The notes beneath the pieces are model-generated. The model did no database searches and was not told the DNA's origin. It saw only the letters and a list, made by a program, of their open reading frames with translations. DNA of 64,000 nucleotides. Origin: Sedimentisphaeraceae bacterium JB056. GTDB lineage: Bacteria; Planctomycetota; Phycisphaerae; Sedimentisphaerales; Sedimentisphaeraceae. Below, one piece after another: positions 1-30,183 of this stretch. The DNA is taken from assembly GCA_044440125.1 (NCBI GenBank), contig JBITAJ010000029.1, positions 1-64,000 on the forward strand, given 5' to 3'. The stretch's first letter is position 1; each line of letters starts with the position of its first letter. The position numbers and the translations under genes are program-made.

Positions 1-32
1 TCGTTTGCATTAAATCCTTTAAGACTTGCCAT
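1..32 (-). CDS. 5' end of a gene running off the window (MASLKGFNAN...), probably a DUF669-like ssDNA-binding protein
   Basis: ATG at 32 with upstream AGGAG, overlapping the Sak4-like stop; N-terminus and position are typical of Sak4-SSB pairs. Confidence 0.5.
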   Translation of the reverse strand, partial: MASLKGFNAN

Positions 33-783
33 CTGTTATTTCTCCTGTGGTTGTGTTAATATTGTTTGAAAAATTCTTTTCAAGTCCCTCTGCTATAGCT
101 GATGTAAAACTATCCCAGCTAAATTCAATCTCAGGCGGCATGGAATAGCGGTTCTTTGCCAATGCTCTTGGTGTTTCAGAAGTGATCAGGATACGAGTAT
201 CCTCGTCAATCTTCTTCGCCAGACATACAAAATCGCTCCACTCGATTATCGCATTCAAGTGTTCATCCGGCAGATCCGGTGCTGTTTTCTCGATTACAAT
301 ACCGTCAATATCAGTAATCTCGGTTCGCTTGGCATGAGCCAGCAATATCACCGCTATACCCTTTGAAATAATCCTGTCAAAAAGCGGCAGTAATATCTGG
401 AAAATATAGTTTTTGAGAACTTGCTTACCATTGCCATATCCGCCATGGCTTCGGTTCAGTGTTGAATCTGTTTTACCGCCAGCACAACCTGAGACGTGCT
501 CCTCGATACGACGAACAAGCCAATCGATTGTGTCGACAACTACCACATGGTATGGATGCTCATCTCTCTCGATAGTCTGCAACCAGGCATGAATTTCAGT
601 CCAGGTGCCCAGGTATGGTGTCCTTACACACGCAATAGTTGCGGCACCATTCTCGCAGTCAATAATTAGCGAGCTGCCAGCTCTGGCAGCAAATGTGCTC
701 TTTCCACATCCTGCCTGACCATAGACAATACCTTTCGGCGGTGATGGTTTAGGGTTAGTAATAAGAGTGTTAAGTAACGTCAT
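19..783 (-). CDS. Phage AAA_24/Sak4-like P-loop ATPase (single-strand annealing recombinase family)
   Basis: Walker A GQAGCGKST, IIDCENG, Walker B VVVDTID, LLAH, AKNRY motifs. Confidence 0.85.
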   Translation of the reverse strand: MTLLNTLITNPKPSPPKGIVYGQAGCGKSTFAARAGSSLIIDCENGAATIACVRTPYLGTWTEIHAWLQTIERDEHPYHVVVVDTIDWLVRRIEEHVSGCAGGKTDSTLNRSHGGYGNGKQVLKNYIFQILLPLFDRIISKGIAVILLAHAKRTEITDIDGIVIEKTAPDLPDEHLNAIIEWSDFVCLAKKIDEDTRILITSETPRALAKNRYSMPPEIEFSWDSFTSAIAEGLEKNFSNNINTTTGEITDGKS

Positions 784-798
784 AGAAATACCTTCTGA

Positions 799-1221
799 TT
801 ATGGGTTAGTTATTTTTTTTGCAGCACTGAACACTTCAGAGAGTTCGGTCAGCTCTGAATATTTGCGTTCAAATGCACGTAACTCGTTTTTTGCTGTTCG
901 TAGTAACTCTTTCAGTCTTTCAGGGTCGCTTATCACATCTTCAATAAGTCGATACCCTCCAGTATCACGGTCACGATCCAAGCTCACATACATCCTGACT
1001 TCTTTGGGTTTTGTTTGGGGCAAAATGACTGTAATACGCCTTATCAAGGCTCTGCATTGTTCAATTCGCCATTTATGTGCCGCTGTAGTATCGTTCCAGT
1101 CAAATTCATCATGTAGTGGATTCGATTTTTCTTTTGCCTTTTCGACAACAACTTCAGGAAGCAACAAGCCTCCGTTTTCTTCTGCTATTCGTCGCAGCTC
1201 ATTTGTTTTTTCCGGTTTCAT
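799..1221 (-). CDS. Phage-type hypothetical protein, candidate accessory protein of the RAMP/array locus
   Basis: 140 aa with RBS (AGAAAGGG); SNPLHDEFDWND..AA..WR motif; directly downstream of array 1. Confidence 0.75.
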   Translation of the reverse strand: MKPEKTNELRRIAEENGGLLLPEVVVEKAKEKSNPLHDEFDWNDTTAAHKWRIEQCRALIRRITVILPQTKPKEVRMYVSLDRDRDTGGYRLIEDVISDPERLKELLRTAKNELRAFERKYSELTELSEVFSAAKKITNP

Positions 1222-1252
1222 TAAATCCCTTTCTGTATGTAAAATATTTAAT

Positions 1253-1374
1253 GCCTGCCGTACCTTGTCATGCCTGGCCTATCCACGCCTATCTTTGCCT
1301 TGAAAAGCCACTCCTGCCATGCATTGTCTCACCACGCAGTTCGATACCCCGTCTCGCCATGCCTCGCCTGCCAT
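1253..1374 (-). repeat. Array 1: 5-nt-periodic NN+GGY-like repeat with two full units (10 and 11 pentamers) delimited by GCAGG; putative guide RNAs
   Basis: Minus strand: ATGGC AGGC GAGGC ATGGC GAGAC GGGGT ATCGA ACTGC GTGGT GAGAC AATGC ATGGC AGGA GTGGC TTTTC AAGGC AAAGA TAGGC GTGGA TAGGC CAGGC ATGAC AAGGT ACGGC AGGC. Confidence 0.9.
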
Positions 1375-1377
1375 GTA

Positions 1378-2013
1378 TTAAACAATATCAAATAGTCCCC
1401 AACCCATACCAGCGGATTGCTTACTGTCTGGGCGACCTTCACCAACACCAACCTGTTGCCCAACTCTTAATAGCAGGTTTGCTATGTCCGAATTATCAAA
1501 CTGATCAGCATCCCAGCGAACGGTAACAACTGCTTCCCAACCGGCATCCCACATCGCTCTTGCCCGAAGATCACACACACCTGAAGCGATACGGACATGG
1601 CTCTCGTGATACCTCGGCTCACCCTTTGTAATCTTGACCAGAGGCGTCCCATCGTCCTTATCGAAACCATCTGGCAAAACAAAAACAGATAATTTGGCCT
1701 TTGTCATCGTGAACCCTGCAACCCGGCACGCACTGATCATCGCATTGCGAAATGCCGGAGCGGGGATTCCACACCAACCCTCTGGTGTCTTGTGTTGAGA
1801 CTGTTCAAAGCAGGCATCAAAATCTTTAGATTCTTTCTTGGTTCTATTCTTTGATTTAGAACCGGCTTCTTGCGCTGCGTGCATCTGTTCTTTGGCTTTT
1901 TTACTGAACTTGTTCTGCACATAGGGAGCTGTCCCACGAATTTTGAATTGTGCAACTTTTAAGTTTGGCGGGGCTATTACTGCCGACTCTATAATTTGTT
2001 GTTTGTTTGACAT
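1378..2013 (-). CDS. Stand-alone RAMP/Cas7-like protein (VIPR-like effector candidate)
   Basis: N-terminal strand FKIRGTAPY; GIPAPAFRNAM resembles the RAMP IPGSSLKGA motif; C-terminal Gly-rich loop GVGEGRP...GMGWGLF; flanked by periodic arrays. Confidence 0.75.
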   Translation of the reverse strand: MSNKQQIIESAVIAPPNLKVAQFKIRGTAPYVQNKFSKKAKEQMHAAQEAGSKSKNRTKKESKDFDACFEQSQHKTPEGWCGIPAPAFRNAMISACRVAGFTMTKAKLSVFVLPDGFDKDDGTPLVKITKGEPRYHESHVRIASGVCDLRARAMWDAGWEAVVTVRWDADQFDNSDIANLLLRVGQQVGVGEGRPDSKQSAGMGWGLFDIV

Positions 2014-2042
2014 TCTTTACCTTTCTGAATTAATTATGTGTA

Positions 2043-2064
2043 AAAGTCGGAAACCACCGACTTT
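2043..2064 (-). other. 8-bp hairpin between array 2 and the RAMP-like gene
   Basis: Minus strand AAAGTCGG-TGGTTT-CCGACTTT. Confidence 0.6.
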
Positions 2065-2092
2065 GGTTGAGGGTCGCTCCCCTTTATTTAAC

Positions 2093-2196
2093 ATCTTACT
2101 TTATCAGGTCTCGTCACGCCAAGCCTGCCTCGCCTTGCCGGGCATCGCTTTGTCTTGCCTCGTCACGTCGCGTCATACCATTCCTGCTTTGCTGTG
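2093..2196 (-). repeat. Array 2: 5-nt-periodic NN+GGY/GAC repeat with one full 11-pentamer unit plus partial units
   Basis: Minus strand: ACAGC AAAGC AGGA ATGGT ATGAC GCGAC GTGAC GAGGC AAGAC AAAGC GATGC CCGGC AAGGC GAGGC AGGC TTGGC GTGAC GAGAC CTGAT AAAGT AAGAT. Confidence 0.88.
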
Positions 2197-2994
2197 CTAA
2201 AATAAATCAAGAATCCGGACATCTTCAAATCGTGTCGGCCACAAATCTGACTCGATACAGTTCTTGAGCTCTTCAATATGCTGCTCGTTCTCATGCTGAG
2301 CTTCATCGAGTGCCATCTCCGATATCTTCCATACGCCGCATCGGAACGGCTCTCGTTTCTCGATAGCGACGATGTGAACGTCAGCTTGGATCCCGGATGC
2401 TTCTTTGAGTACTGCTCGATAGAAAGCAAGCTGGCTTATATAGCCGTACCGCCTCGCATCGAACTCAAATTTATCGAGCGAGTCGCAGGTTTTAAGATCA
2501 GCTATTCCTTTTTCGGGATTAAAGTAATCCATCCTGATCTGAGAAGGCAGTCCGCAATAATCAACACGGCAAACGCCTTCGGCGAAGCCTCCGGTTATCA
2601 ATGCGGGAGCAATTGGATGAGTTAAGACCTGATTCTGCATAAATTCAAGGGTAACAAGCTCTTCGCTGCTGATAACCGGCTTGCCAATCTCATCTGCCCA
2701 TGCAGCAAAGGCCTTGGTATTGGAGCCAAAGGGCTTGCCGGTTTTGGGATTTACAGGTCCGCCTACTGCATACTCATCCTCAAAAACTTCTCTTCCCTCA
2801 AGTATCAAGGTATGAGCGGCTCTGCCAAAGCTATAGCATTGCGAATCCCTGTCTTTAATAAGCCCGGTGAGTTTCTTAAAATACATAAGAGGACAATTAA
2901 TGAATTCGATAAGCTGATGGCTCGATAAATTCTCCTTAGCTTGCCAGTGGTAATAATCTGCCGGTTCTTCAATCAAATAATGAAATTTCTGCAT
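2197..2994 (-). CDS. PD-(D/E)xK nuclease, DUF3799/exonuclease VIII (RecE)-like
   Basis: LSSHQL, FGRAAH, RMD...ADLKT, Y..QLAFY, AIEK.EP motifs; start moved to ATG 2994 (RBS AAGGA). Confidence 0.85.
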   Translation of the reverse strand: MQKFHYLIEEPADYYHWQAKENLSSHQLIEFINCPLMYFKKLTGLIKDRDSQCYSFGRAAHTLILEGREVFEDEYAVGGPVNPKTGKPFGSNTKAFAAWADEIGKPVISSEELVTLEFMQNQVLTHPIAPALITGGFAEGVCRVDYCGLPSQIRMDYFNPEKGIADLKTCDSLDKFEFDARRYGYISQLAFYRAVLKEASGIQADVHIVAIEKREPFRCGVWKISEMALDEAQHENEQHIEELKNCIESDLWPTRFEDVRILDLF

Positions 2995-3027
2995 TGTGAT
3001 TCCTTTTAATAATATCGCCTTAGTAAA

Positions 3028-3057
3028 ATACATACCGTGTGAAACTCAAAAGTGTCA
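3028..3057 (-). promoter_or_regulatory. Putative element-specific promoter TGACAC-N15-GGTATGTAT
   Basis: Same motif and spacing recur at 23243-23272; both lie upstream of minus-strand element operons. Confidence 0.55.
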
Positions 3058-3570
3058 GATGTTTTCCATATAGATTTCAAGCCCGTTTTCCTTAAATGCT
3101 TTGCGAAGAGGATTTATGACTCTGTAATAAAAAGTTGATCTTTTAACTCCTGCTTTCTTCGCCGCATGGGTTATTCTTTCACTGCGGGCCAGTAATCTGC
3201 AGCCTTCCTGAAGCTCAGGGGTAAGAGAATTAACTGTTTCCTGAACATCTATCTGAAGTTGCAGGGACCGGCAATCATCGTTTTTATCAATGAAGTCATT
3301 GAAGATTCTCCCTGTTTCAGTAAAAGATCTGCATTTTTGCTCGGTTTTTCTGCGCGAGAGAATGTCAGATATTTTCTTCTGAAGTATGCATTGAACAAAT
3401 GTTGAAGTTTTGCCTTTTTCCGGATCATAGCTCTCTGCCTTTTTGAGAAGTTCCAGATAAAGCTCCTGCTCAATATCCTCTAAATCATTAATCCCTATTC
3501 CGCATCTGCCAAGAAGCAAAGATGCCTTTGTAGAAACAATCTTTCTGATGTAATCATCAATTTCAATCAT
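3055..3570 (-). CDS. Sigma-70/ECF-like sigma factor or regulator
   Basis: Region-2-like DLEDIEQEL...YDPEKG..STF; C-terminal HTH (ITHAAKKAGVKRSTFY). Confidence 0.7.
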   Translation of the reverse strand: MIEIDDYIRKIVSTKASLLLGRCGIGINDLEDIEQELYLELLKKAESYDPEKGKTSTFVQCILQKKISDILSRRKTEQKCRSFTETGRIFNDFIDKNDDCRSLQLQIDVQETVNSLTPELQEGCRLLARSERITHAAKKAGVKRSTFYYRVINPLRKAFKENGLEIYMENI

Positions 3571-3862
3571 AGCGTTCTTTCTTTCAATATGTCTGCACGA
3601 ATTTGCAAAACCTGTTATTTTAATCTAACTAAAACAGCCGTTTTACCTTTATTGAGCTCTCAGTTATTAATGTCGAAATTTCACGCTGATAGCTTTGGAA
3701 TTTTAAGCAGTAACATGGTCGGCAATGCTAAGGCGTTGTTATTTATAGTTTTGCAAAAAATAATAAATTTGAATATTTTTTGTTTTTTGCTGATTCTGAA
3801 AACGAAATTTCACGCAGTGAATTTTCACAGATTAAAATTCATGCAAATTATCTCTTAGACTA

Positions 3863-3890
3863 TTGACCTTTATTATAGAAGGTCTATAAT
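3863..3890 (+). promoter_or_regulatory. Sigma70 promoter of the repressor gene, overlapped by an inverted repeat (candidate operator)
   Basis: TTGACC-N16-TATAAT; GACCTT-N8-AAGGTC at 3865-3884. Confidence 0.6.
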
Positions 3891-3923
3891 AAAGACATGA
3901 TTACTTAGCAAAAGGAAAAGACT

Positions 3924-4544
3924 ATGGCAAAGAAGAAGCTGGCAATCACCAAACCTCAGAAGCAGGCATTGATAGAAATATGCCGCTTTATTGACGAAAA
4001 TGGTTATCCGCCTACTATAAAAGAGCTTGCAGATAACTTTAATATCGCCGCCCCCAGCATGAAAGACAGGCTTACTCATCTCATTAACAAGGGATATATA
4101 TCCATGAAAGCCAATAAAGGGCGAAGTATTAAGGTTCTTAAAAGACCGGCAGATCTGCCCAGGCAGATGATAATGATACCTGTTATAGGTGTTGTTGCCG
4201 CAGGTCATCCGATAATGGCTGAAGAAAATATTATCGGTGAGCTAATGGTAGAAGAGAATATTGTAGCACATGGAGAATATTTTGCGTTGAAAGTCTGCGG
4301 CAAAAGTATGGTGTGTGCGGGGATTAAAGACGGCTCTTTGATCATAGTCAAACGACAGATCTTAGCGGCAAACGGTGAAATTGTGATAGCTCTTCTAAAT
4401 GGCGAGGTTACTGTTAAAAGATTACTGATTAATGATTTAGGAATCAAACTCTTGCCGGAAAACCCTGAAATGGAGCCTATCGCAATAGACTATGATGATG
4501 ATTTAAAGATAATTGGTAAAGTAGTTGCCTGTAGAAACATATAA
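3924..4544 (+). CDS. lexA: LexA-family repressor (element-borne)
   Basis: wHTH GYPPTIKEL, cleavage site VAAG.P, catalytic G.SM and VTVKR. Confidence 0.9.
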   Translation: MAKKKLAITKPQKQALIEICRFIDENGYPPTIKELADNFNIAAPSMKDRLTHLINKGYISMKANKGRSIKVLKRPADLPRQMIMIPVIGVVAAGHPIMAEENIIGELMVEENIVAHGEYFALKVCGKSMVCAGIKDGSLIIVKRQILAANGEIVIALLNGEVTVKRLLINDLGIKLLPENPEMEPIAIDYDDDLKIIGKVVACRNI

Positions 4545-5463
4545 GAACACTGATGGGTTGAACCGACCTCTGGGCTATTGCAGCATGTCAAACCTAAGCC
4601 TTTTCAGGACAGAGGAGTTGCATCAGATGGAAATTAAAGAGCAGGAAGGTTTAGATTGGAAATTAAGAGCACATTCAGCAGCACAAATATACAAAAGGTT
4701 TGAGAGTTTTGAGCCGGGATTGTTGACCGAGTTGATCAAGAATCTTCATCTGTGGGCATCAATCTTACCGCAGGTATATGATGATATCGGGATATACCAT
4801 CCGGTAAACAGTTCCGGGCTCTCACCTGAGGTTACTGAGCTTTCTGCGATAATCGATGAGCTGATATTAAACGGCAGTGATCAATTGGCTAACTGCCTGC
4901 AAAACAAGCTTCAGAGCCTACAGGAATCAGCGTCTATGCTTGATCAGGTATATCCGATTCATACAAATACTCAGCGTTTTGAAGAATTGAGACTCACCGA
5001 TATATGCCAGAGAAAGGCTGAGCTGTTGTGCAGCTATCTCTATAAGCTCAAAGAGAGGTTATTTGAGATAGCTTCCAGTGAAAAGATAGACTTACCAGAC
5101 CAGAAGCAGGAAAAAATGTCACTATCCGAGGTTCCTTGGGAGGACATTGAAATATGCTTTATAGACGGTCATACCGTTTCTATAAAAGCGGATAATAAAT
5201 CCCAGATCTATACGTATGTTCAAATGTCAATGTCCAGTAAACACAACGGACACCCGACCAAACAGTGGCTGCTGCTCGAAGCCTTTGCCCAGACCGGCGG
5301 CAGGATAAGCTGGAAAGACCCGCAGTCTAATACGAATCTGCGAAAACAAAAACAGCTTCTTTCGAGAATCCTGAAAGATTTCTTCTGCAAAGAAACTGAC
5401 CCTATCGATTGGCTCAGAGAGCAGAAATGCTATTGCTGCAGGTTTGGGATATCAATCAGATAA
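4525..5463 (+). CDS. Hypothetical protein, possible C-terminal winged-helix domain; start uncertain
   Basis: 312-aa ORF following lexA. Confidence 0.65.
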   Translation: MPVETYKNTDGLNRPLGYCSMSNLSLFRTEELHQMEIKEQEGLDWKLRAHSAAQIYKRFESFEPGLLTELIKNLHLWASILPQVYDDIGIYHPVNSSGLSPEVTELSAIIDELILNGSDQLANCLQNKLQSLQESASMLDQVYPIHTNTQRFEELRLTDICQRKAELLCSYLYKLKERLFEIASSEKIDLPDQKQEKMSLSEVPWEDIEICFIDGHTVSIKADNKSQIYTYVQMSMSSKHNGHPTKQWLLLEAFAQTGGRISWKDPQSNTNLRKQKQLLSRILKDFFCKETDPIDWLREQKCYCCRFGISIR

Positions 5464-5481: not shown

Positions 5482-7470
5482 TCAGTTTCCAAAAGTACAC
5501 TTTAGTAATTTACCAGAGTCATCACGTCCGTGAAGTCTTAAACGAACAAAAGGTCTTTGATTGATTTCAGTTAGCGGTTGAGATGTCGTTGTAAGGATGT
5601 ATTGAAAACTAATATTATTGTCGTCTTTGTGACACATCTCAATATCTCGCACAAAACGTAAGATTGAATAATATAGCTCATCCTCGCTGTCTGCTTGCCG
5701 AGGACTGTCATGTATAAGCAACCTTGGCATATAACCAACTCCACAAATAGATGCAGCCAGGCATGCTAAATCGTAGCTTAATACATCAGCGTAAGTCCTA
5801 AGTGTTGTTCCAGAATCAGATACTACATTACTGGGTTTGGGGCGTATTCCTTTCCCATCAATTATAATTTCTCCACTGGCATCAGGGGCGACTATTTTCT
5901 GTAATACCAAGGAATAGTATTTTGAAAGGCGTTTTCTTTCTTTATTCATTTTTGATCGATATTTATTTTGTACGACTAATGAATCTGATATTTTTTTCTT
6001 AGTACTCTCGTGATCATTTTTATATTTATCCAGTTGTGACCATGCTGCACGGTATTGCTTGGCTTGTTTAGATCTTGTCTCCCATAGAGAAATCTTCTGA
6101 TTAACATTATCTCTCTTAATTATCAGATTGCTTTCCAGATCCTTTTGGATATGCTTGTTTTTGCCTATCTCTGATTTTATTTCGTTTTGTCTTTCATTGA
6201 GCCAAACTAACCTTATATTCAATGCTGTTAGTTCAGACCTTATCTCTCTTACGATTCTTTTTCTTTCGGGATCAACAATCTCGTGGTTTTGTATGTCTTT
6301 TCCAGGACATCCTGCATTCATTGCCTTTTCTTTTTTATCAAAGAACAAGCAACGCCATCTTGCACTTAATAGGTCTTTTATAAGAGCATCATCATCTTGT
6401 TTTTCTTTTTGTTCAAGCTCGACTTGTTTTAATTTCATGCTATTTTTTTTGTCATTAATTTCCGCTTCAATAGCACCATTTTCTTTAGTCAAATCCTCTA
6501 TTTTTTTTCTGATATCACATATCTCTGCATATTTAGAAAAGTCAGGGTCTCCAAGCAATCTTTTAAGACTCTGTATTTTTTCGTCTGCAATCTCCTTAAG
6601 CATTTCGCCAAATAATTCACCATGAATAGCGTCTTTAACTTCCTCTATTGAATTACGGAGCTGAATTTCCGTCTCATTAATGAAATTTTCATATCGTTTA
6701 GCATCTCGTTCAAAACGGTCTCTATCAATCAATAATTTACGATGAATTCCCATTTGTGATGTTTCTTCAGGATGTAAAAGCCCTAAAGCCATTTTCATTA
6801 CCAAATAAGCATCTTCTCGAGTAAGCACTCTGGAACCTGCTTGAGCATCAGTGATTCGCCAGTCTGCATGATGAGCAAAATGACAATCCTGATCTCTGCT
6901 CAGCCATCCCAATAAATCTTGCCAACAAGCTTTTCTATAATCAGCATGCGGCAAACCAATATCAGCGTAACAGTTTTGGGTTGCTTTATTAATGGCATTT
7001 AGAAATATTTCATATTTGAGACGTGAATCTTTGCGTAACAACTCATTCAATCTATTTGACTTTATGCACCATGAACAAACGTGGCCGGATTCAAGACCAA
7101 GTGGACGAGCAACACTCCAAGTTTGTTTATCCACTCTAATTTGCGCCAATACATAAGCATGTTCCAATTTGTTTGTAATTGCACTTCGTAATGTATCTGT
7201 GCAGTATCTTTTTTCACCAAGACAATACCGAATTATGCGAACCAATAAGGATTTCCCGACACTATGCCCAACCGTATGCACATCGCGAGATGTTCGTTTT
7301 TCAGTACATATAAGATTTAACCCACGTTTAAATCTTATTTTGCGAATGACTCGTATAGGCTTTTCAGTGCTTTCAATTATAACAAGCTTTTTGATCCAAA
7401 TTGCAGGTTCATCAAAATTACAAACCGGCTCTATAAATCCTTCAGGAAAAAGAAAATTCGATCTCTGCAT
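5482..7470 (-). CDS. SMC-like ABC ATPase of ABC-three-component/Lamassu (LmuB-like) type
   Basis: Walker A GHSVGKS, long coiled coil with C-x14-C, C-terminal LIHDSPR and FQYILTT; ATG at 7470. Confidence 0.75.
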   Translation of the reverse strand: MQRSNFLFPEGFIEPVCNFDEPAIWIKKLVIIESTEKPIRVIRKIRFKRGLNLICTEKRTSRDVHTVGHSVGKSLLVRIIRYCLGEKRYCTDTLRSAITNKLEHAYVLAQIRVDKQTWSVARPLGLESGHVCSWCIKSNRLNELLRKDSRLKYEIFLNAINKATQNCYADIGLPHADYRKACWQDLLGWLSRDQDCHFAHHADWRITDAQAGSRVLTREDAYLVMKMALGLLHPEETSQMGIHRKLLIDRDRFERDAKRYENFINETEIQLRNSIEEVKDAIHGELFGEMLKEIADEKIQSLKRLLGDPDFSKYAEICDIRKKIEDLTKENGAIEAEINDKKNSMKLKQVELEQKEKQDDDALIKDLLSARWRCLFFDKKEKAMNAGCPGKDIQNHEIVDPERKRIVREIRSELTALNIRLVWLNERQNEIKSEIGKNKHIQKDLESNLIIKRDNVNQKISLWETRSKQAKQYRAAWSQLDKYKNDHESTKKKISDSLVVQNKYRSKMNKERKRLSKYYSLVLQKIVAPDASGEIIIDGKGIRPKPSNVVSDSGTTLRTYADVLSYDLACLAASICGVGYMPRLLIHDSPRQADSEDELYYSILRFVRDIEMCHKDDNNISFQYILTTTSQPLTEINQRPFVRLRLHGRDDSGKLLKCTFGN

Positions 7471-10400
7471 AATCTTCCACCTCACAATAATCATCTAAAA
7501 TCAAATTCGTATCGTTTAATTTTCTAATTGCTTTTAAGCACTCTTCAGCTTTATGGAAAGCTTTATTCACTCTTTCGTCGTTTAATTTATTGCCCAGTTC
7601 TAAGGCATTTTTGCCTAAGCTAATAAGTTGTCTTTTGTCACGCGTCTCAATTATAACGGTATCCGTTCCCGCCAATTCCCCAAGAAATTCATCAAAATTT
7701 ATAAAGCAGGGTTGTTTATTTGATTTAGTAGTGTCTTTTTTTATCTCTAAATTTGCAACTCTTCTCCTTAGCTCATCTCTTTGCATCAACAACATGCCGA
7801 CTTCAAAGGCTCGCCTATCTACCGATTTATTCCAAACATAAAGCAATGCTAAGGCATCAAGAATAGCCATTGCATGCTCAATTTTTTCGGTATCAATAGT
7901 TGAATTCTGATGAAGTATATGCGATGTCTGACTATTAGTATTATTAAGAACAATTATCTTGTCAAACATTCTACGTATATAAGTATGCTTATCTTCTTTC
8001 ATAAACAATACATTACGGTTATCCAAATCGGATTTACTTACCGTAGTGCCAATCCAGTTTATTTCCAGATATCTGGATTCGGATATTATAAATGAATTTA
8101 GAACAACGTCTGGATCGTTTAGTCTTGTTTCAATTTCTTTTATCTTCTTATGGAATTCTATTTTAGCATCCTTTATACCGTTTAAATTACGCAACCCCTT
8201 AGGATCAACAAAACTGATATGCTGTTTATTCTCAGCAACAAGCCATACTATGAAATCAGGATAGAAATTTCCTGCTTCAAAAAAGCCTACACCTTTGCCT
8301 CTGCTTCTGTTTCTTAATATATAAAGTTGTTTGTCTGCGAAGTATTCTTCATTGGAACGGCAAAAAGTTTTAATATCCAACAGGAAATTCTTTTCGCTAT
8401 CGACAAGAGCCACCGGTTTTATTTCAACATCACAATCAGGGGTTTTCCAGAGAAGAGGCTGATACAGGTGATTATTGAAAGCTATCGAATTAAATCCGGG
8501 CAAATCTATATCCAGTTTAGTAAATTCAGCCGGTTCAAGCTGCTTTGATTCTATTAGCTTCTTCACCTTTTCAAGTTTGGCTATAATATCTCGTCTGGAA
8601 GCATTTATCGCGAATTCATATTCTTTTACAAAATTAGGATCATCTGCTCTAAGCTCTCTATATTCAAGATGCTCTTTTTCCCAATTAGCTTTCTGATTTT
8701 CGTAGCACCTATTTGTATACTTTTTCAGAAGTGCAACCGCCAGCTCCTGCCACCGGGGTACTTTTGTAAAACTGTCAAAGGCCAGCTCTTTAGCCGGTAT
8801 ATATACCTTATACCATTCGGTATCATCTAATAATCTTTTAAGAACATTTCTGTCTATATTAAGATTATACCATGACCTTTCATTTTTGTATCGAATAAGC
8901 TCGAAGTATATCTCATCAATATTCAACAAACTAACATGATCGGGTGTAAGGCAGCCAACATCCGGAATACCTTCAGCAACAGCGGCAGTAGCTGAATAGC
9001 TCATGATAGACTGCACCTTTGGATACCAGTTGATCTCGATGGGCCTTCTTTTAAAATCCCTATCGGGCAATCCAAGTGTAGGTTTTGGTGCCTGCTTTTT
9101 ATAGCTTACTCCTTCTTTCAGCTTTATTGTCTTAAGCTTGACTTTACCGAGATTATTCAGTACCGGCAAAATAAATTCGATCTTGTCGCCATCGACAGGC
9201 AGCCCCTGTTCTTTCAGATATTCTTTGAACTGGCTCATATAATCAGCGTGGATACCAAAAATATTCAGTGTCTCCAGCATACTTATATAATCAGGAGCTT
9301 TAGCTCCGACCGTTTTGCTGCTACGTTTTAGGCTGAAATCAAGACCTTTAAGCCTTACGCCTCTGCCGAAAAGCTGTATAATCTGGGAGCCTTCATTTTT
9401 GCCTATATTCATAAGCCCCATTGTACTTACACGCCAGCTGCTCCAGCCCTCGGTAAACTTTCTCGAACCTATCAGAAGATTGATATTAGAAGATTCCGAA
9501 TTTATATTTCTAAAAAGCGATTTTGAAAACGGCTCATCACTAACCACCATTTGCTTGTGTTTTTCACAAAGTTTGCAAAGTTTGTCAGAATCACCAACAT
9601 TTATAACCCCGAAAGGCTCGTTCTCTCCTAAAGATAAGGCGATCTCGCCATCGGAGCCTTTAAGATTTCTGACGTGAAGCAGACCGGCAGAATTGGAATT
9701 AAAAAGTGTTCGCAAGACATCGTTATATAATTGGGCAGGCTCGGTATCATTCATAGAAGCCAGATAAGTGAAATTTGTACTGAGCAGATCACTGCCCCGG
9801 CTATTCAGAAGCCCGCTTTTGCCTTTGAGGAAATCATCAATGAAGCTTACAGATTGCTTACTGTTATTGGCGAATTCAGCTAAAAACAACAGTATATCAA
9901 TGATATCTGACACATCTTTCTTGCTTATAGTCTTCGTAACGCTGCTGCCGACAAAAATCCAAAGAGGCTTCTCAATAAGAAACTTTTTCAATTCACTTCG
10001 CTTATCATTGAACAGTTTTTGCTGCTGATAAAACGCCATCAGGCAAGCTGTGAGATATCTCACTCGTTGCTGTTGGTCGCGGTCATCTTCAAGGTTGAGA
10101 ATACGATAATCCTTGCCGTAACCATCCTCATAAAAAAACTTGTAGGAGTAGTCAAATATAATACTCTTGGCATACGTGTTAATAAGCTTCTTGTCTTTTT
10201 TGACTGCCTGGCCGAATGTGGCAGAATATTCGAATGAAAACCCATTTTCACAAAGGCAGTTTCTTCGCTCCATCCATTTTCCGCTGCTTCCGCCTGATGT
10301 GCCTCTGTGGCCTTCGTCGATGAGCACAAGATTATTGTCTTCAAAGGCTTCCACGGCGATAGTCTTATCTCCGGAGGTATCCGAGAGTTTGGATATTTCT

Positions 10401-11116
10401 ATGATCTCTACAGGTTTATCATTTAAATGCGTTAGAGGCATACTGCCTGCTTTATCAAATATATCGCCAGTTAAACCAGAAAGTGTCAGTTCTTCATTAT
10501 GCTGATTGCTGAGCCCTTCGTTTGGCGTGAGTAATATTACCTTATTGAGCTCTTTATGCATATTCTCTCTTGCCAGATAATATTTGTATTGCAGGATATT
10601 GATATGCATCAGCAGTGTTTTGCCCGAACCGGTAGCATTCCAGAGCGATATCTTGTTGAGATTTTCAATGTTGAAAGCTTCAATCCTCTCCTTCTCCGGC
10701 AGCTTCTCGTTAAAAGAATCGAGATATCGGTTGAGATCATCAAGGAGCTTTTCTTTGCTTGTGAAATATCTGTCAAGATAAATTTCGGTAAACAGCAAGC
10801 TGAGATACTGGAAATATTTAGGATAAAGCTTTTTGCCGTTGGCTTCCCTCTTTTCGGTTATCTGTTTCCAATAACGCACAATCCTCTGGTCATATTTAGC
10901 AAGCATATCAGAGGTAATCTCCACGCGGTCAAAAAGCCTCGCCGTCAAGACGCCGTAATAACGTGAAAAACCGTCTTCTGTGATACAGTCCTCGTCAAAT
11001 CCTTTAAGCCCGTAAGAGAGCTCCTCGATATTTTTGACTTCGAATAAACTCAAAAGCCAATTGAAAAGAACAAGCTTCTCACTGAAATGCATTGTTTTTT
11101 TAGTTCTTTTTGCCAT
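7442..11116 (-). CDS. Type III restriction endonuclease Res subunit with C-terminal extension
   Basis: ATGSGKT, DEGH, YSATF, FTEGW, QLFGRGVR helicase motifs; FYPDF..FVDPKG nuclease; ~165 extra residues. Confidence 0.9.
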   Translation of the reverse strand: MAKRTKKTMHFSEKLVLFNWLLSLFEVKNIEELSYGLKGFDEDCITEDGFSRYYGVLTARLFDRVEITSDMLAKYDQRIVRYWKQITEKREANGKKLYPKYFQYLSLLFTEIYLDRYFTSKEKLLDDLNRYLDSFNEKLPEKERIEAFNIENLNKISLWNATGSGKTLLMHINILQYKYYLARENMHKELNKVILLTPNEGLSNQHNEELTLSGLTGDIFDKAGSMPLTHLNDKPVEIIEISKLSDTSGDKTIAVEAFEDNNLVLIDEGHRGTSGGSSGKWMERRNCLCENGFSFEYSATFGQAVKKDKKLINTYAKSIIFDYSYKFFYEDGYGKDYRILNLEDDRDQQQRVRYLTACLMAFYQQQKLFNDKRSELKKFLIEKPLWIFVGSSVTKTISKKDVSDIIDILLFLAEFANNSKQSVSFIDDFLKGKSGLLNSRGSDLLSTNFTYLASMNDTEPAQLYNDVLRTLFNSNSAGLLHVRNLKGSDGEIALSLGENEPFGVINVGDSDKLCKLCEKHKQMVVSDEPFSKSLFRNINSESSNINLLIGSRKFTEGWSSWRVSTMGLMNIGKNEGSQIIQLFGRGVRLKGLDFSLKRSSKTVGAKAPDYISMLETLNIFGIHADYMSQFKEYLKEQGLPVDGDKIEFILPVLNNLGKVKLKTIKLKEGVSYKKQAPKPTLGLPDRDFKRRPIEINWYPKVQSIMSYSATAAVAEGIPDVGCLTPDHVSLLNIDEIYFELIRYKNERSWYNLNIDRNVLKRLLDDTEWYKVYIPAKELAFDSFTKVPRWQELAVALLKKYTNRCYENQKANWEKEHLEYRELRADDPNFVKEYEFAINASRRDIIAKLEKVKKLIESKQLEPAEFTKLDIDLPGFNSIAFNNHLYQPLLWKTPDCDVEIKPVALVDSEKNFLLDIKTFCRSNEEYFADKQLYILRNRSRGKGVGFFEAGNFYPDFIVWLVAENKQHISFVDPKGLRNLNGIKDAKIEFHKKIKEIETRLNDPDVVLNSFIISESRYLEINWIGTTVSKSDLDNRNVLFMKEDKHTYIRRMFDKIIVLNNTNSQTSHILHQNSTIDTEKIEHAMAILDALALLYVWNKSVDRRAFEVGMLLMQRDELRRRVANLEIKKDTTKSNKQPCFINFDEFLGELAGTDTVIIETRDKRQLISLGKNALELGNKLNDERVNKAFHKAEECLKAIRKLNDTNLILDDYCEVEDYAEIEFSFS

Positions 11117-27621: not shown

Positions 27622-30183
27622 ATGAACGAACAAAGCGGTAAATACAATTTTAACGAAATCGAGAAGAAGTGGCAGGACTTTTGGGTAGATAATAAGACTT
27701 TTAAGGTCGAAAAGAGTGAAAAGCCCAAATATTACGTACTTGATATGTTCCCGTATCCAAGCGGACAGGGTTTGCATGTAGGCCATCCTGAAGGTTATAC
27801 CGCCAGCGATATTGTTGCCCGTTATAAGCGTATGAACGGTTTTAACGTGCTTCATCCTATCGGCTGGGATGCGTTCGGTCTGCCTGCCGAGCAATACGCT
27901 ATCCAGACAGGTACTCACCCCGCGCAGACTACAAAGAAAAATATCGACAATATGCGTCGTCAGATCAAGAGCCTTGGTTTCAGCTACGACTGGGACAGGG
28001 AAGTAAACACCACCGACCCGAACTACTACAAATGGACGCAGTGGATATTCCTCAAATTCTACAACAGTTTCTTTGATGAAAAGCTCCAGAAGGCACGCCC
28101 GATAGAGGAGCTTGAGATACCTGCCGAGATTGAGGCACAGGGCAAAGAGGCAGTACGCAATTTTATCGATGACAATCGTCTGGCGTATGAGAATGAGGCA
28201 CCGGTTAACTGGTGTCCTGAGCTGGGAACGGTTTTGGCGAACGAGGAAGTTGTTAACGGCGTGAGTGAACGCGGCGGCCATCCGGTTATCCGCAAGCCTA
28301 TGCGTCAGTGGATGCTTCGCATAACCAAGTTCAGCGAGCGTCTGCTTGATGGGCTTGATGAACTCGACTGGTCGTACTCAATCAAGAAGCTCCAGACCGA
28401 CTGGATCGGCAAGAGCGTTGGTGCGGAAGTTGATTTCAAGATTGACGGTTTTGATGAGAGCATCACCGTATTTACAACACGTCCTGATACGCTTTTCGGT
28501 GCTACTTATATGGTAATGGCGCCAGAGCATAAGCTTGTAGAGAAAATCACGACTGCCGAGTATAAAGAGGCGGTTGAGAAATATATTGAGACCGCGGCTA
28601 CAAAGAGCGATCTCGACAGAACAGACCTTGCCAAGGATAAGAGCGGGCAGTTTACAGGTGCTTACGCGGTCAATCCTGTTAACGGCAACAAGATTCCTAT
28701 CTGGATCAGTGATTATGTGCTGATTAGCTATGGTACGGGTGCGATTATGGCTGTACCTGCCCACGATACGAGGGATTTTGAGTTTGCTACCAAGTTTGGG
28801 CTTGAGATAATTCAGGTTGTCAAGCCTGATAACGAAGAGGATGCGGCGAAGGTTGCCGCCGGTGAGCTTTGCTTTGCCGGTAACGGTATCGCAATCAACT
28901 CAGGTGAGTTTGACGGCATGCCGACACAGGAATTCAAGAAGAAGATTACAGCCTGGCTCGAAGAAAATGCAATGGGTAAAGAGGCTGTTAATTATAAGCT
29001 TCGCGACTGGCTCTTCAGCCGTCAGCGTTATTGGGGCGAGCCGTTCCCTATTCTCCATGCTGAAGACGGCGAGCGTCTGGCACTTGATGAAAGCCAGCTT
29101 CCGCTCACACTTCCGGAAGTCGAGAATTATAAGCCGAGCGGCACAGGCGAGCCGCCGCTTTCAAACGCGACTGATTGGGTTGAGGTTGTACTGCCGGACG
29201 GCCGCAAGGCACGCCGTGAGCTTAATACTATGCCGCAATGGGCGGGCAGCTGCTGGTACTATATACGCTATATCGACCCTGATAATTCAGAAGCGGCGTT
29301 CGATCCTGAGAAGGAACAGTATTGGCTGCCTGTAGATTTGTATATCGGCGGTGCGGAGCATGCCGTGCTTCACCTGCTTTATTCAAGGTTCTGGCATAAG
29401 CTGCTGTTCGATCTCGGATACATCAAGGCTCCTGAGCCGTTCCAGAAGCTGGTTAATCAGGGTATGATTCTCGGTGAAGACGGCCAGAAGATGAGTAAGA
29501 GCCGCGGCAATGTTGTCAATCCCGACAATGTTATCAATGATTACGGTGCTGACTCAATGAGGCTTTATGAAATGTTCATGGGGCCGCTTGAGGCGACTAA
29601 GCCTTGGAGCATGACAGGCGTTGAAGGTGTTCACAGGTTCCTGCAGAAAGTTTGGCGTACTATTGTTGATGATAATACCGGCAAGCTTTCTTCTGCCGTA
29701 GTCAACATTGACGCTGATGCCGATACAACCAGAATCCTTCACCAGACTATAAAGAAGGTTACGTTGGATATTGAGAATTTCTCATTCAACACTGCGATAA
29801 GCCAGATGATGATTTTTATCAATCATGTGAGCAAGATGGATAAACGCCCGGTTGATGCGTTGAAGCAGTTTGTGCTTGTGCTTGCTCCGTTTGCCCCGCA
29901 TGTTTGCGAGGAGCTGTGGCAGATTCTCGGCGGCGAAGGTGATACCATCGGGTATAAGCAGTGGCCAAAGTTTGTTGAAGAGCTTACCAAAGAAAGCGAA
30001 GTTGAGATTGCTGTTCAGGTGAAGGGCAAGATCAAGGACAGAATAATGGTAAGCCCTGATGACTCGGAAGAGCAGCTTCAGGAAAAGGCACTGGCAAGCG
30101 AAAAGGTGCAGGCGGCGATAAATGGCGCACCGATCAGAAAAGTGATTGTGGTAAAAGGGCGTTTGGTTAATATCATCGCCTAA
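27622..30183 (+). CDS. leuS: Leucine--tRNA ligase
   Basis: MFPYPSG.GLHVGH, KMSKS, editing domain TTRPDT. Confidence 0.98.

Follow-up and report, generated by a model that had tools for sequence, protein, structure and literature searches.

The stretch of DNA analysed here (the window) consists of the first 64,000 nucleotides (nt) of contig JBITAJ010000029.1 (C29) of Sedimentisphaeraceae bacterium JB056 (GCA_044440125.1), a metagenome bin of 4.54 Mb in 33 contigs. Near its start, on the minus strand, lies an operon in the order sigma factor, DUF3799 exonuclease, array A, vipr, array B, vap and Sak4, the SSB, RusA and helicase genes being found on the next contig. The vipr gene (1378..2013, minus strand) encodes a 211-amino-acid (aa) single-RRM RAMP of the Cas7-like kind, and the vap-like accessory gene (799..1221, minus strand) a 140-aa protein of phrog_15946. 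The region from about 790 to 2200, with array A, vipr, array B and vap, is very probably a VIPR (Viral Interference Programmable Repeat) cassette located within a temperate phage's early operon. VIPR systems are already described in two preprints (10.64898/2026.04.26.720920; 10.64898/2026.04.26.720927) and this locus is a further example, not a new kind. What its sequence appears to add is a natural pairing of target and self alleles in a single assembly and, for a staggered array, guide boundaries that are deduced from the targets.

As set out in the text of these preprints, VIPR combines a small ancestral RAMP (Vipr), RNAs (vrRNAs) of 9-16 YNNGG repeats and the accessory vap, and is found mostly in phages and prophages (10.64898/2026.04.26.720920; 10.64898/2026.04.26.720927). 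Each repeat is bound by one Vipr protomer, GGY being sequestered and NN displayed, according to the account given there of the cryo-electron microscopy (cryo-EM) structure from Escherichia phage SUSP1 (10.64898/2026.04.26.720927). The same texts report that NN pair with double-stranded DNA, one target base, usually the codon wobble, being skipped per repeat, that transcription is repressed, and that natural targets are competing phages and satellites (10.64898/2026.04.26.720920; 10.64898/2026.04.26.720927). Seven types are distinguished and array variants include a staggered one, where each vrRNA shares 1 nt with its neighbour; this variant is not in the list of architectures confirmed by small-RNA sequencing that the preprint text provides (10.64898/2026.04.26.720920). 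An earlier note, made from the letters of this DNA alone, had proposed here a VIPR-like RNA-guided system. Such systems are indeed in print in the two preprints, and every part of its interpretation that could be tested was supported. One protomer per pentamer with NN displayed, as the earlier note imagined, is what the text of the cryo-EM preprint reports for SUSP1 (10.64898/2026.04.26.720927) and may by analogy apply here.

Both gaps around the vipr open reading frame (ORF) are minus-strand pentamer arrays, in which a variable NN is joined to a mostly G-G/A-pyrimidine triplet (GRY-NN). Among the 32 pentamers of the three full units, the constant triplet is GGY in 17, GAC in 7 and something else in 8 (AGC, TGC three times, CGA, TTC, AGA and GGA). 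Five GCAGG junctions, at 2187-2183, 2128-2124, 1371-1367, 1317-1313 and 1258-1254, are spaced by 59 nt in array A and by 54 and 59 nt in array B. The start of each array coincides with the stop codon of the preceding gene (TAG 2199-2197 and TAA 1380-1378). On the minus-strand reading, all these triplet counts, junctions, unit lengths and starts prove to be exactly as first noticed. The junction GGC-A-GGC is a 4-nt step between units of 10-11 pentamers. If its C doubles as the pyrimidine of GGY and as the first NN base, adjacent units would overlap by 1 nt, which fits the wording of the fig. S18 legend on staggered arrays.

The claim of a strict period of five stands in part. Measured in segments of 50 nt over the whole 64 kb, period-5 power has its maximum at 1253 for minus-strand G (3.14, the runner-up being 1.77) and at 2118 for minus-strand C (1.67 and 1.54), so that no other part of the window is as strongly periodic and the pattern exceeds chance. 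Runs of at least 6/8 in-phase NNNGG or YNNGR pentamers occur in the 64 kb solely at 1253-1317, 1327-1366 and 2128-2177, and 20 shuffles gave zero such runs for YNNGG and YNNGR, the two patterns shuffled. The word strict does not hold: YNNGG nowhere attains 6/8 in the 64-kb window, and the arrays escape Tandem Repeats Finder. The tandem repeats that mark vrRNAs beside vipr, at least four YNNGG or units of the related consensus NNNGG, YNNNG or NNNNG, are present in relaxed form only. Across the 4.54-Mb genome, the other period-5 peaks are only coding Gly-Met-Pro repeats (MGMPG...). These lie in two large ORFs of 754 and 636 aa, at C29:393365-393434 and 397137-397220 (about 5365-5450 and 9140-9215 of locus L070), and are unrelated to VIPR.

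Array A, like all array features on the minus strand, opens with a leader (2183..2196) that begins at the exonuclease stop codon and consists of the degenerate pentamers AGC-AC-AGC-AA-AGC and the first GCAGG junction (2187-2183). Guide unit A1 (2127..2186, 60 nt) carries the NN series CA AT AT GC GT GA AA AA GA CC AA GA on the constant triplets GGA GGT GAC GAC GAC GGC GAC AGC TGC GGC GGC GGC. It is followed by the short unit A2 (2088..2127; NN = CA TT GT GA CT AA AA GT), which gives way to AT-rich sequence and is perhaps a remnant or else a 3' tail. An 8-bp hairpin followed by UUUU (2042..2064), placed after array A and before the ribosome-binding site of vipr, looks like a terminator or tail; its fold energy is statistically unremarkable and it is absent from the listing of the terminator scan. 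Array B comprises unit B1 (1316..1370, 55 nt; NN = CA GA AT GA GG AT AC GT GA AA AT) and unit B2 (1257..1316, 60 nt; NN = CA GT TT AA AA TA GT TA CA AT AA AC). It is closed by the last GCAGG junction (1254..1258), after which come an AT-rich spacer and the vap ribosome-binding site. Secondary structure of the array RNA reaches no significance (z 0.09 and -1.57); such a lack of structure seems plausible for an RNA that would be held extended in a protein filament.

The 211-aa protein has a Cas7/RAMP fold (Cas7/Csm3), the fold that had been predicted for it, with a predicted thumb hairpin at residues 124-141 and a G-loop at 189-206 (GVGEGRP...GMGWG). The RAMP-like motifs first seen in its translation, GIPAPAFRNAM (residues 82-92) and the C-terminal Gly-rich loop, are both family-conserved. 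The reference for comparison is the type II VIPR of phage SUSP1, which we located in NC_028808.2 as a pair of ORFs lying between long non-coding regions rich in GGT pentamers (Vipr 28474-29061, vap1 28031-28471, with four vrRNAs). Homology to this experimentally characterised Vipr is detected in two ways. BLASTP aligns the 211-aa protein with the 195-aa SUSP1 ORF over nearly its whole length (residues 18-195; E 9e-6, 20% identity), and a hidden Markov model built from 99 family members finds, among 539 SUSP1 ORFs, that ORF as its single match (E 2.1e-8). SUSP1 R138 and R179 correspond to R152 and R194, at least 90% conserved or invariant in the family (R194 is invariant), and D177 to E192. Residues reported to contact GGY in SUSP1 are thus partly retained. 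By these comparisons, the 211-aa protein is a Vipr-family RAMP with staggered GRY-NN arrays on its strand and a conserved partner gene.

General resources are less informative on these proteins. Neither the 211-aa nor the 140-aa protein falls into a Pfam family, PHROGs places the former in an unannotated family, PADLOC gives a chance-level match only, and a PDB sequence search returned nothing relevant, the PDB copy evidently being without VIPR structures. The family is nevertheless very large, a word-indexed search of metagenomes at E <=1e-3 yielding 5,241 clusters at 90% identity; at 50% identity the family has 2,018 representatives. The model of the 140-aa protein has a weakly winged-helix-like N-terminal part and a C-terminal helical hairpin, and between it and SUSP1 vap1 no homology is detectable. 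In VIPR types II, VI and VII, the accessory protein is predicted to bind DNA by a winged helix or HTH.

The same architecture recurs in viral relatives. In 17 IMG/VR loci with a Vipr homologue (45-64% identity), a vap homologue adjoins vipr on its downstream side in 17/17. Same-strand period-5 arrays, whose presence beside homologues the earlier note had proposed as a check, accompany the gene in 15/17, and the two exceptions end ~600 nt past the gene, before the array position of their close relative L010. The relatives' arrays are cleaner, with GGY in 617/831 in-phase triplets. Their GCAGG junctions are spaced by 4 mod 5 in 91/122 intervals, most commonly by 49, 59, 44 and 54 nt, so that the window units of 54, 59 and 59 nt are typical of the clade. 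Cyanophage Cy-LDV1 (BK059895.1) carries vipr, array, vap and array in the same order, with a vap homologue (E 1e-14) and all genes annotated as hypothetical. Among 60 related genomes searched, vipr was found in one (24% identity), a rarity expected for a mobile trait. A single-protein search of 185,579 species genomes gave one match, 56% identical, in PEWA01000003.1 (L021), a 6.3-kb contig of a Candidatus Shapirobacteria metagenome-assembled genome (MAG); this contig is perhaps a phage one that binning assigned to the MAG. We also note proteins 30-36% identical to the window Vipr, all annotated as hypothetical, in 27 records of mycobacteriophages and 5 of Gordonia phages (e.g. Mycobacterium phage Zizzle, MZ274306.1 37687-38193, and Gordonia phage ODay).

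The guides point to a second, related operon in the same assembly. At C27:312052-314376 (L023 16053-18377) lie genes for a sigma factor, a DUF3799 exonuclease and a Sak4-like ATPase, and this module lacks vipr, vap and arrays. The four units were converted to NN-x queries with skips of 0-3 and scanned over the whole 4.54-Mb assembly, the full guides having been chosen beforehand. With a skip of 1, the best or joint-best matches of A1, B1 and B2 converge within a 720-bp span at the end of contig C27 (C27:313377-314093), A1 in the sister exonuclease gene (313377-313408), B2 and B1 in the sister Sak4 gene (313957-313988 and 314065-314093). No comparable convergence was seen in the assembly with skips 0 and 2, and skip 3 returned the array itself only. 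All three sites begin at codon position 1; therefore the skipped base is the wobble base. The guides are in coding-strand sense, which rules out pairing with the mRNA and leaves the template DNA strand as their necessary partner; this supports DNA as the target. For A1, B1 and B2 alike, the sites combine an NN match of at least 80%, a coding position, a wobble skip and a competing element, the features of natural targets under the rule of a 1-nt skip. The role of NN as target-pairing guides, suggested in the earlier note, is consistent with these matches. The NN of three units spell gapped wobble-skipping sites that lie in exonuclease and Sak4 of a cassette-free sister prophage.

Closer alignment sharpens two of these sites. 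CA, the junction dinucleotide, precedes the A1 and B2 matches, and with this CA the first 10 NN match 20/20. The gapped pattern given by these 10 NN has, for A1 and B2 alike, exactly one 20/20 site in 9.09 million positions, the next best being 17/20 (chance ~8e-6 per guide). Over the whole guide, the sister allele is matched better than the carrier's own for A1 (20 vs 16 of 24), B1 (18 vs 16 of 22) and B2 (20 vs 17 of 24), the own alleles matching at 67-73%. The 22 positions of B1 include the junction CA, and apart from it the sister allele is matched in 18/20. At the A1 site, the own exonuclease allele (2348..2376, minus strand, HIVAIEKREP) agrees in 16/20 positions of the first 10 NN and 16/24 of the whole guide; at the B2 site, the own Sak4 allele (395..423, minus strand, QVLKNYIFQI) agrees in 17/20 and 17/24. 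The carrier's own alleles match less well because sister and own sequences differ at amino-acid-changing positions (e.g. HIIAVEKKEP vs HIVAIEKREP).

The assembly graph fits two related sister prophages. The exonuclease genes of sister and window are 86.5% identical in nucleotides and the Sak4 genes 77%, and in the sister only 40 nt, without a cassette, separate exonuclease and Sak4. The last 132 nt of C27 are also the first 132 nt of C29 (window 1-132) and one end of both C13 and C14. These two contigs (L024 and L025) are 5-kb siblings, 88-91% identical, which encode SSB, RusA, helicase and polymerase/primase, and their other ends each join both C24 and C26 (139 nt). In a sequencing run that is a possible source of the assembly, depth is alike (~46-51) for the window, for a variant contig over part of the exonuclease, most likely the sister allele, and for the flanking chromosome. 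Equal depth and the assembly graph together make it likely that both prophages reside in one cell.

The target patterns extend to other phages. The 10-NN pattern of A1 is exact in 40 IMG/VR contigs, in 40/40 of them in frame in exonuclease homologues of the sigma-exo-Sak4 module, and a vipr homologue (30% identity) was detected between exonuclease and Sak4 in only 1/40. That one locus, L042 (IMGVR_UViG_3300036760_000845), has its divergent vipr and a vap homologue at the window's insertion point, and its exonuclease contains the A1 target pattern without a mismatch. An exact B2 pattern occurs in 4 IMG/VR contigs, in Sak4 homologues in every case. For B1, 9 contiguous perfect NN are found in Sak4 genes of 3 of these uncultured phage contigs, which had been fetched via other guides. 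The A1 and B2 matches in IMG/VR were obtained after removal of the two unmatched terminal NN and addition of the junction CA; the complete A1 pattern of 11 NN is nowhere matched exactly in that collection. A more general idea arose from array A adjoining and targeting the exonuclease and array B lying towards and targeting Sak4, namely that guides of the clade target homologues of their own flanking genes. It was dropped, the best own-locus skip-1 matches of 68 guides from 13 loci being distributed as those of shuffled guides. In a cross-search of 69 guides against related loci (~305 kb), one guide only reached 17/18 matches.

The wider setting is that of a non-CRISPR viral or proviral element, with sigma factor, exonuclease, Sak4, SSB, RusA, helicase and a CI/LexA-like repressor as neighbours. 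The repressor gene (3924-4544, plus strand; PHROG hits, peptidase S24-type C-terminal part) is divergent from the sigma-exo-VIPR-Sak4 operon, which suggests the immunity region of a temperate phage. Beside it, at 5482-11116 (minus strand), are encoded a 1224-aa protein that fits PADLOC's model of a type III restriction enzyme (E 1.5e-244) and a 670-aa protein weakly resembling LmuB / PDC-M68B, possibly a cluster of defence genes where the prophage ends. Promoter and terminator scans gave no signal beyond shuffle expectation. Rfam had no match up to E 1 on window 1-4000, so that there is no hammerhead-type spacer.

Compared through the preprint text and the legend of fig. S18, staggered VIPR resembles the window in its small single-RRM RAMP in a phage, with an adjacent accessory gene and no CRISPR array. 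It also shares the GGY-NN pentamers whose neighbouring units have one base in common (GG[C]A-GG, a 4-nt step), and the 1-nt-skip targets with wobble skip in a competing prophage. By the same sources it differs in that the window triplet is often GAC and that the last two NN of two window guides are unpaired. With SUSP1 the window has in common the G-loop GVG(D/E)xRP, the thumb arginine, an array upstream and further units downstream, and the logic of fixed GGY and variable NN. In contrast, SUSP1 vrRNAs are described in the preprint text as ~100 nt long, with GGT repeats and a conserved pseudoknot-bearing 3' tail per tract (10.64898/2026.04.26.720920), whereas the window units are of 54-59 nt, abutting and tail-less. 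The structured 3' tail that follows each repeat tract in type II is thus lacking, a single hairpin being found after array A only. The downstream array also lies between vipr and vap in the window and after vap in SUSP1.

Class 1 CRISPR-Cas systems, to which Csm3, Cmr4 and Cas7 belong, are linked to a CRISPR array and further cas genes, neither of which accompanies the locus: the window is without a CRISPR array and without cas1, cas2, cas3, cas5, cas6 or cas10 partners. The step also differs, 6 nt with 5 pairing in class 1 and 5 nt with 2 pairing in VIPR, whose guides are hard-wired in the genome. To our knowledge, VIPR has no spacer acquisition. The fold of the 211-aa protein could by itself suggest an orphan Cas7 from a degraded CRISPR-Cas system, the periodic flanks being unrelated low-complexity sequence, and we consider this extremely improbable. 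As already stated in the earlier note, cas genes and CRISPR are missing, Cas1 being absent from the 99.8%-complete genome and CRISPR-like repeats from the 64-kb window. The gene moreover sits within a phage early operon, its family profile finds SUSP1 Vipr, and arrays accompany it in 15/17 viral relatives. Nor is it much easier to see the arrays as acting in the form of DNA, as iterons or operators through which the winged-helix-like 140-aa protein or the RAMP-like protein would regulate the early operon. Their placement exactly between genes of one operon and the weak winged-helix likeness of the 140-aa partner would suit such a role; a DNA-site model does not predict that NN spell in-frame one-base-skip sites in related phage genes, nor homology to an RNA-bound Vipr, and we regard it as very unlikely.

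Several points weigh against a working cassette directed at the sister genes. The single full-guide matches (A1 18/22, B1 18/20, B2 18/22) are no higher than, or one above, shuffled-order maxima; the a priori evidence is therefore the convergence of three guides. The 10-NN windows including the junction CA were picked after the alignments had been seen. For unit A2, neither the genome nor the fetched phage loci yielded a target above background, and a metagenome bin cannot prove that the two prophages are co-resident. In the protein, SUSP1 G-loop W178, which stacks on G2, is replaced by the invariant G193, and H17 by N34. The Trp-to-Gly change was considered as a cause of the GAC triplets and dropped, since this Gly is invariant across a clade whose arrays are mostly GGC. 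In SUSP1, perturbation of GGY is reported to have abolished silencing, GGY>GAY being among the constructs tested (10.64898/2026.04.26.720920).

The erosion of the constant triplets belongs with these points: GGY makes up 17/32 (53%) vs 617/831 (74%) in relatives, and GAC 7/32 (22%) vs 26/831 (3%). Together with the fading of the targetless A2 into AT-rich sequence and with the mismatch of the last two NN of A1 and B2 to the target, it could indicate a decaying, non-functional VIPR, the arrays being in the course of eroding and the target matches a legacy of an earlier active state. We judge this unlikely, if less so than the two preceding explanations. The vipr and vap frames are intact and vipr retains all family-invariant residues. 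Two guides hold 20/20 NN matches to the sister element of the same assembly even beside degenerate triplets, which argues for selection on the NN positions.

For a functional VIPR cassette, the course of events can be sketched by analogy with SUSP1. The arrays would be transcribed along with the operon. One Vipr protomer would clamp each GRY triplet, giving a helical filament that displays the NN pairs, and this filament would bind double-stranded DNA at a matching gapped site and block transcription. The likely biological role is to silence, in competing phages that are close relatives, the genes for recombination and replication. A more detailed joint reading is offered tentatively, and we hold it to be slightly more doubtful than likely. 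Guides of the staggered clade would start at the junction CA of GG-CA-GG, with specificity in the first ~10 NN (20 bases) and the last two repeats serving as an unpaired 3' handle. The cassette would then serve in rivalry between sister phages: lying between exonuclease and Sak4 of its own prophage, it would silence exactly these two genes in the co-resident sister prophage and in a wider phage lineage, self and sister being told apart by amino-acid-changing differences immune to synonymous drift.

If that joint reading is true, the two prophages would provide a natural sequence-defined self/non-self pair for VIPR, and the targets would show for the first time where guides begin and end in an array type outside those listed as confirmed by RNA sequencing in the preprint text. 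VIPR is a newly reported non-CRISPR way of recognising DNA by means of RNA guides, for which this locus is unusually informative. The cassette, its matching target and the slightly divergent own alleles beside the cassette together constitute a natural test of mismatch tolerance and of self/non-self discrimination, with 16-17 vs 20 of 20 bases matched. The locus is relevant, too, to the reading and cutting of staggered arrays and to whether this very large Vipr clade tolerates GAC.

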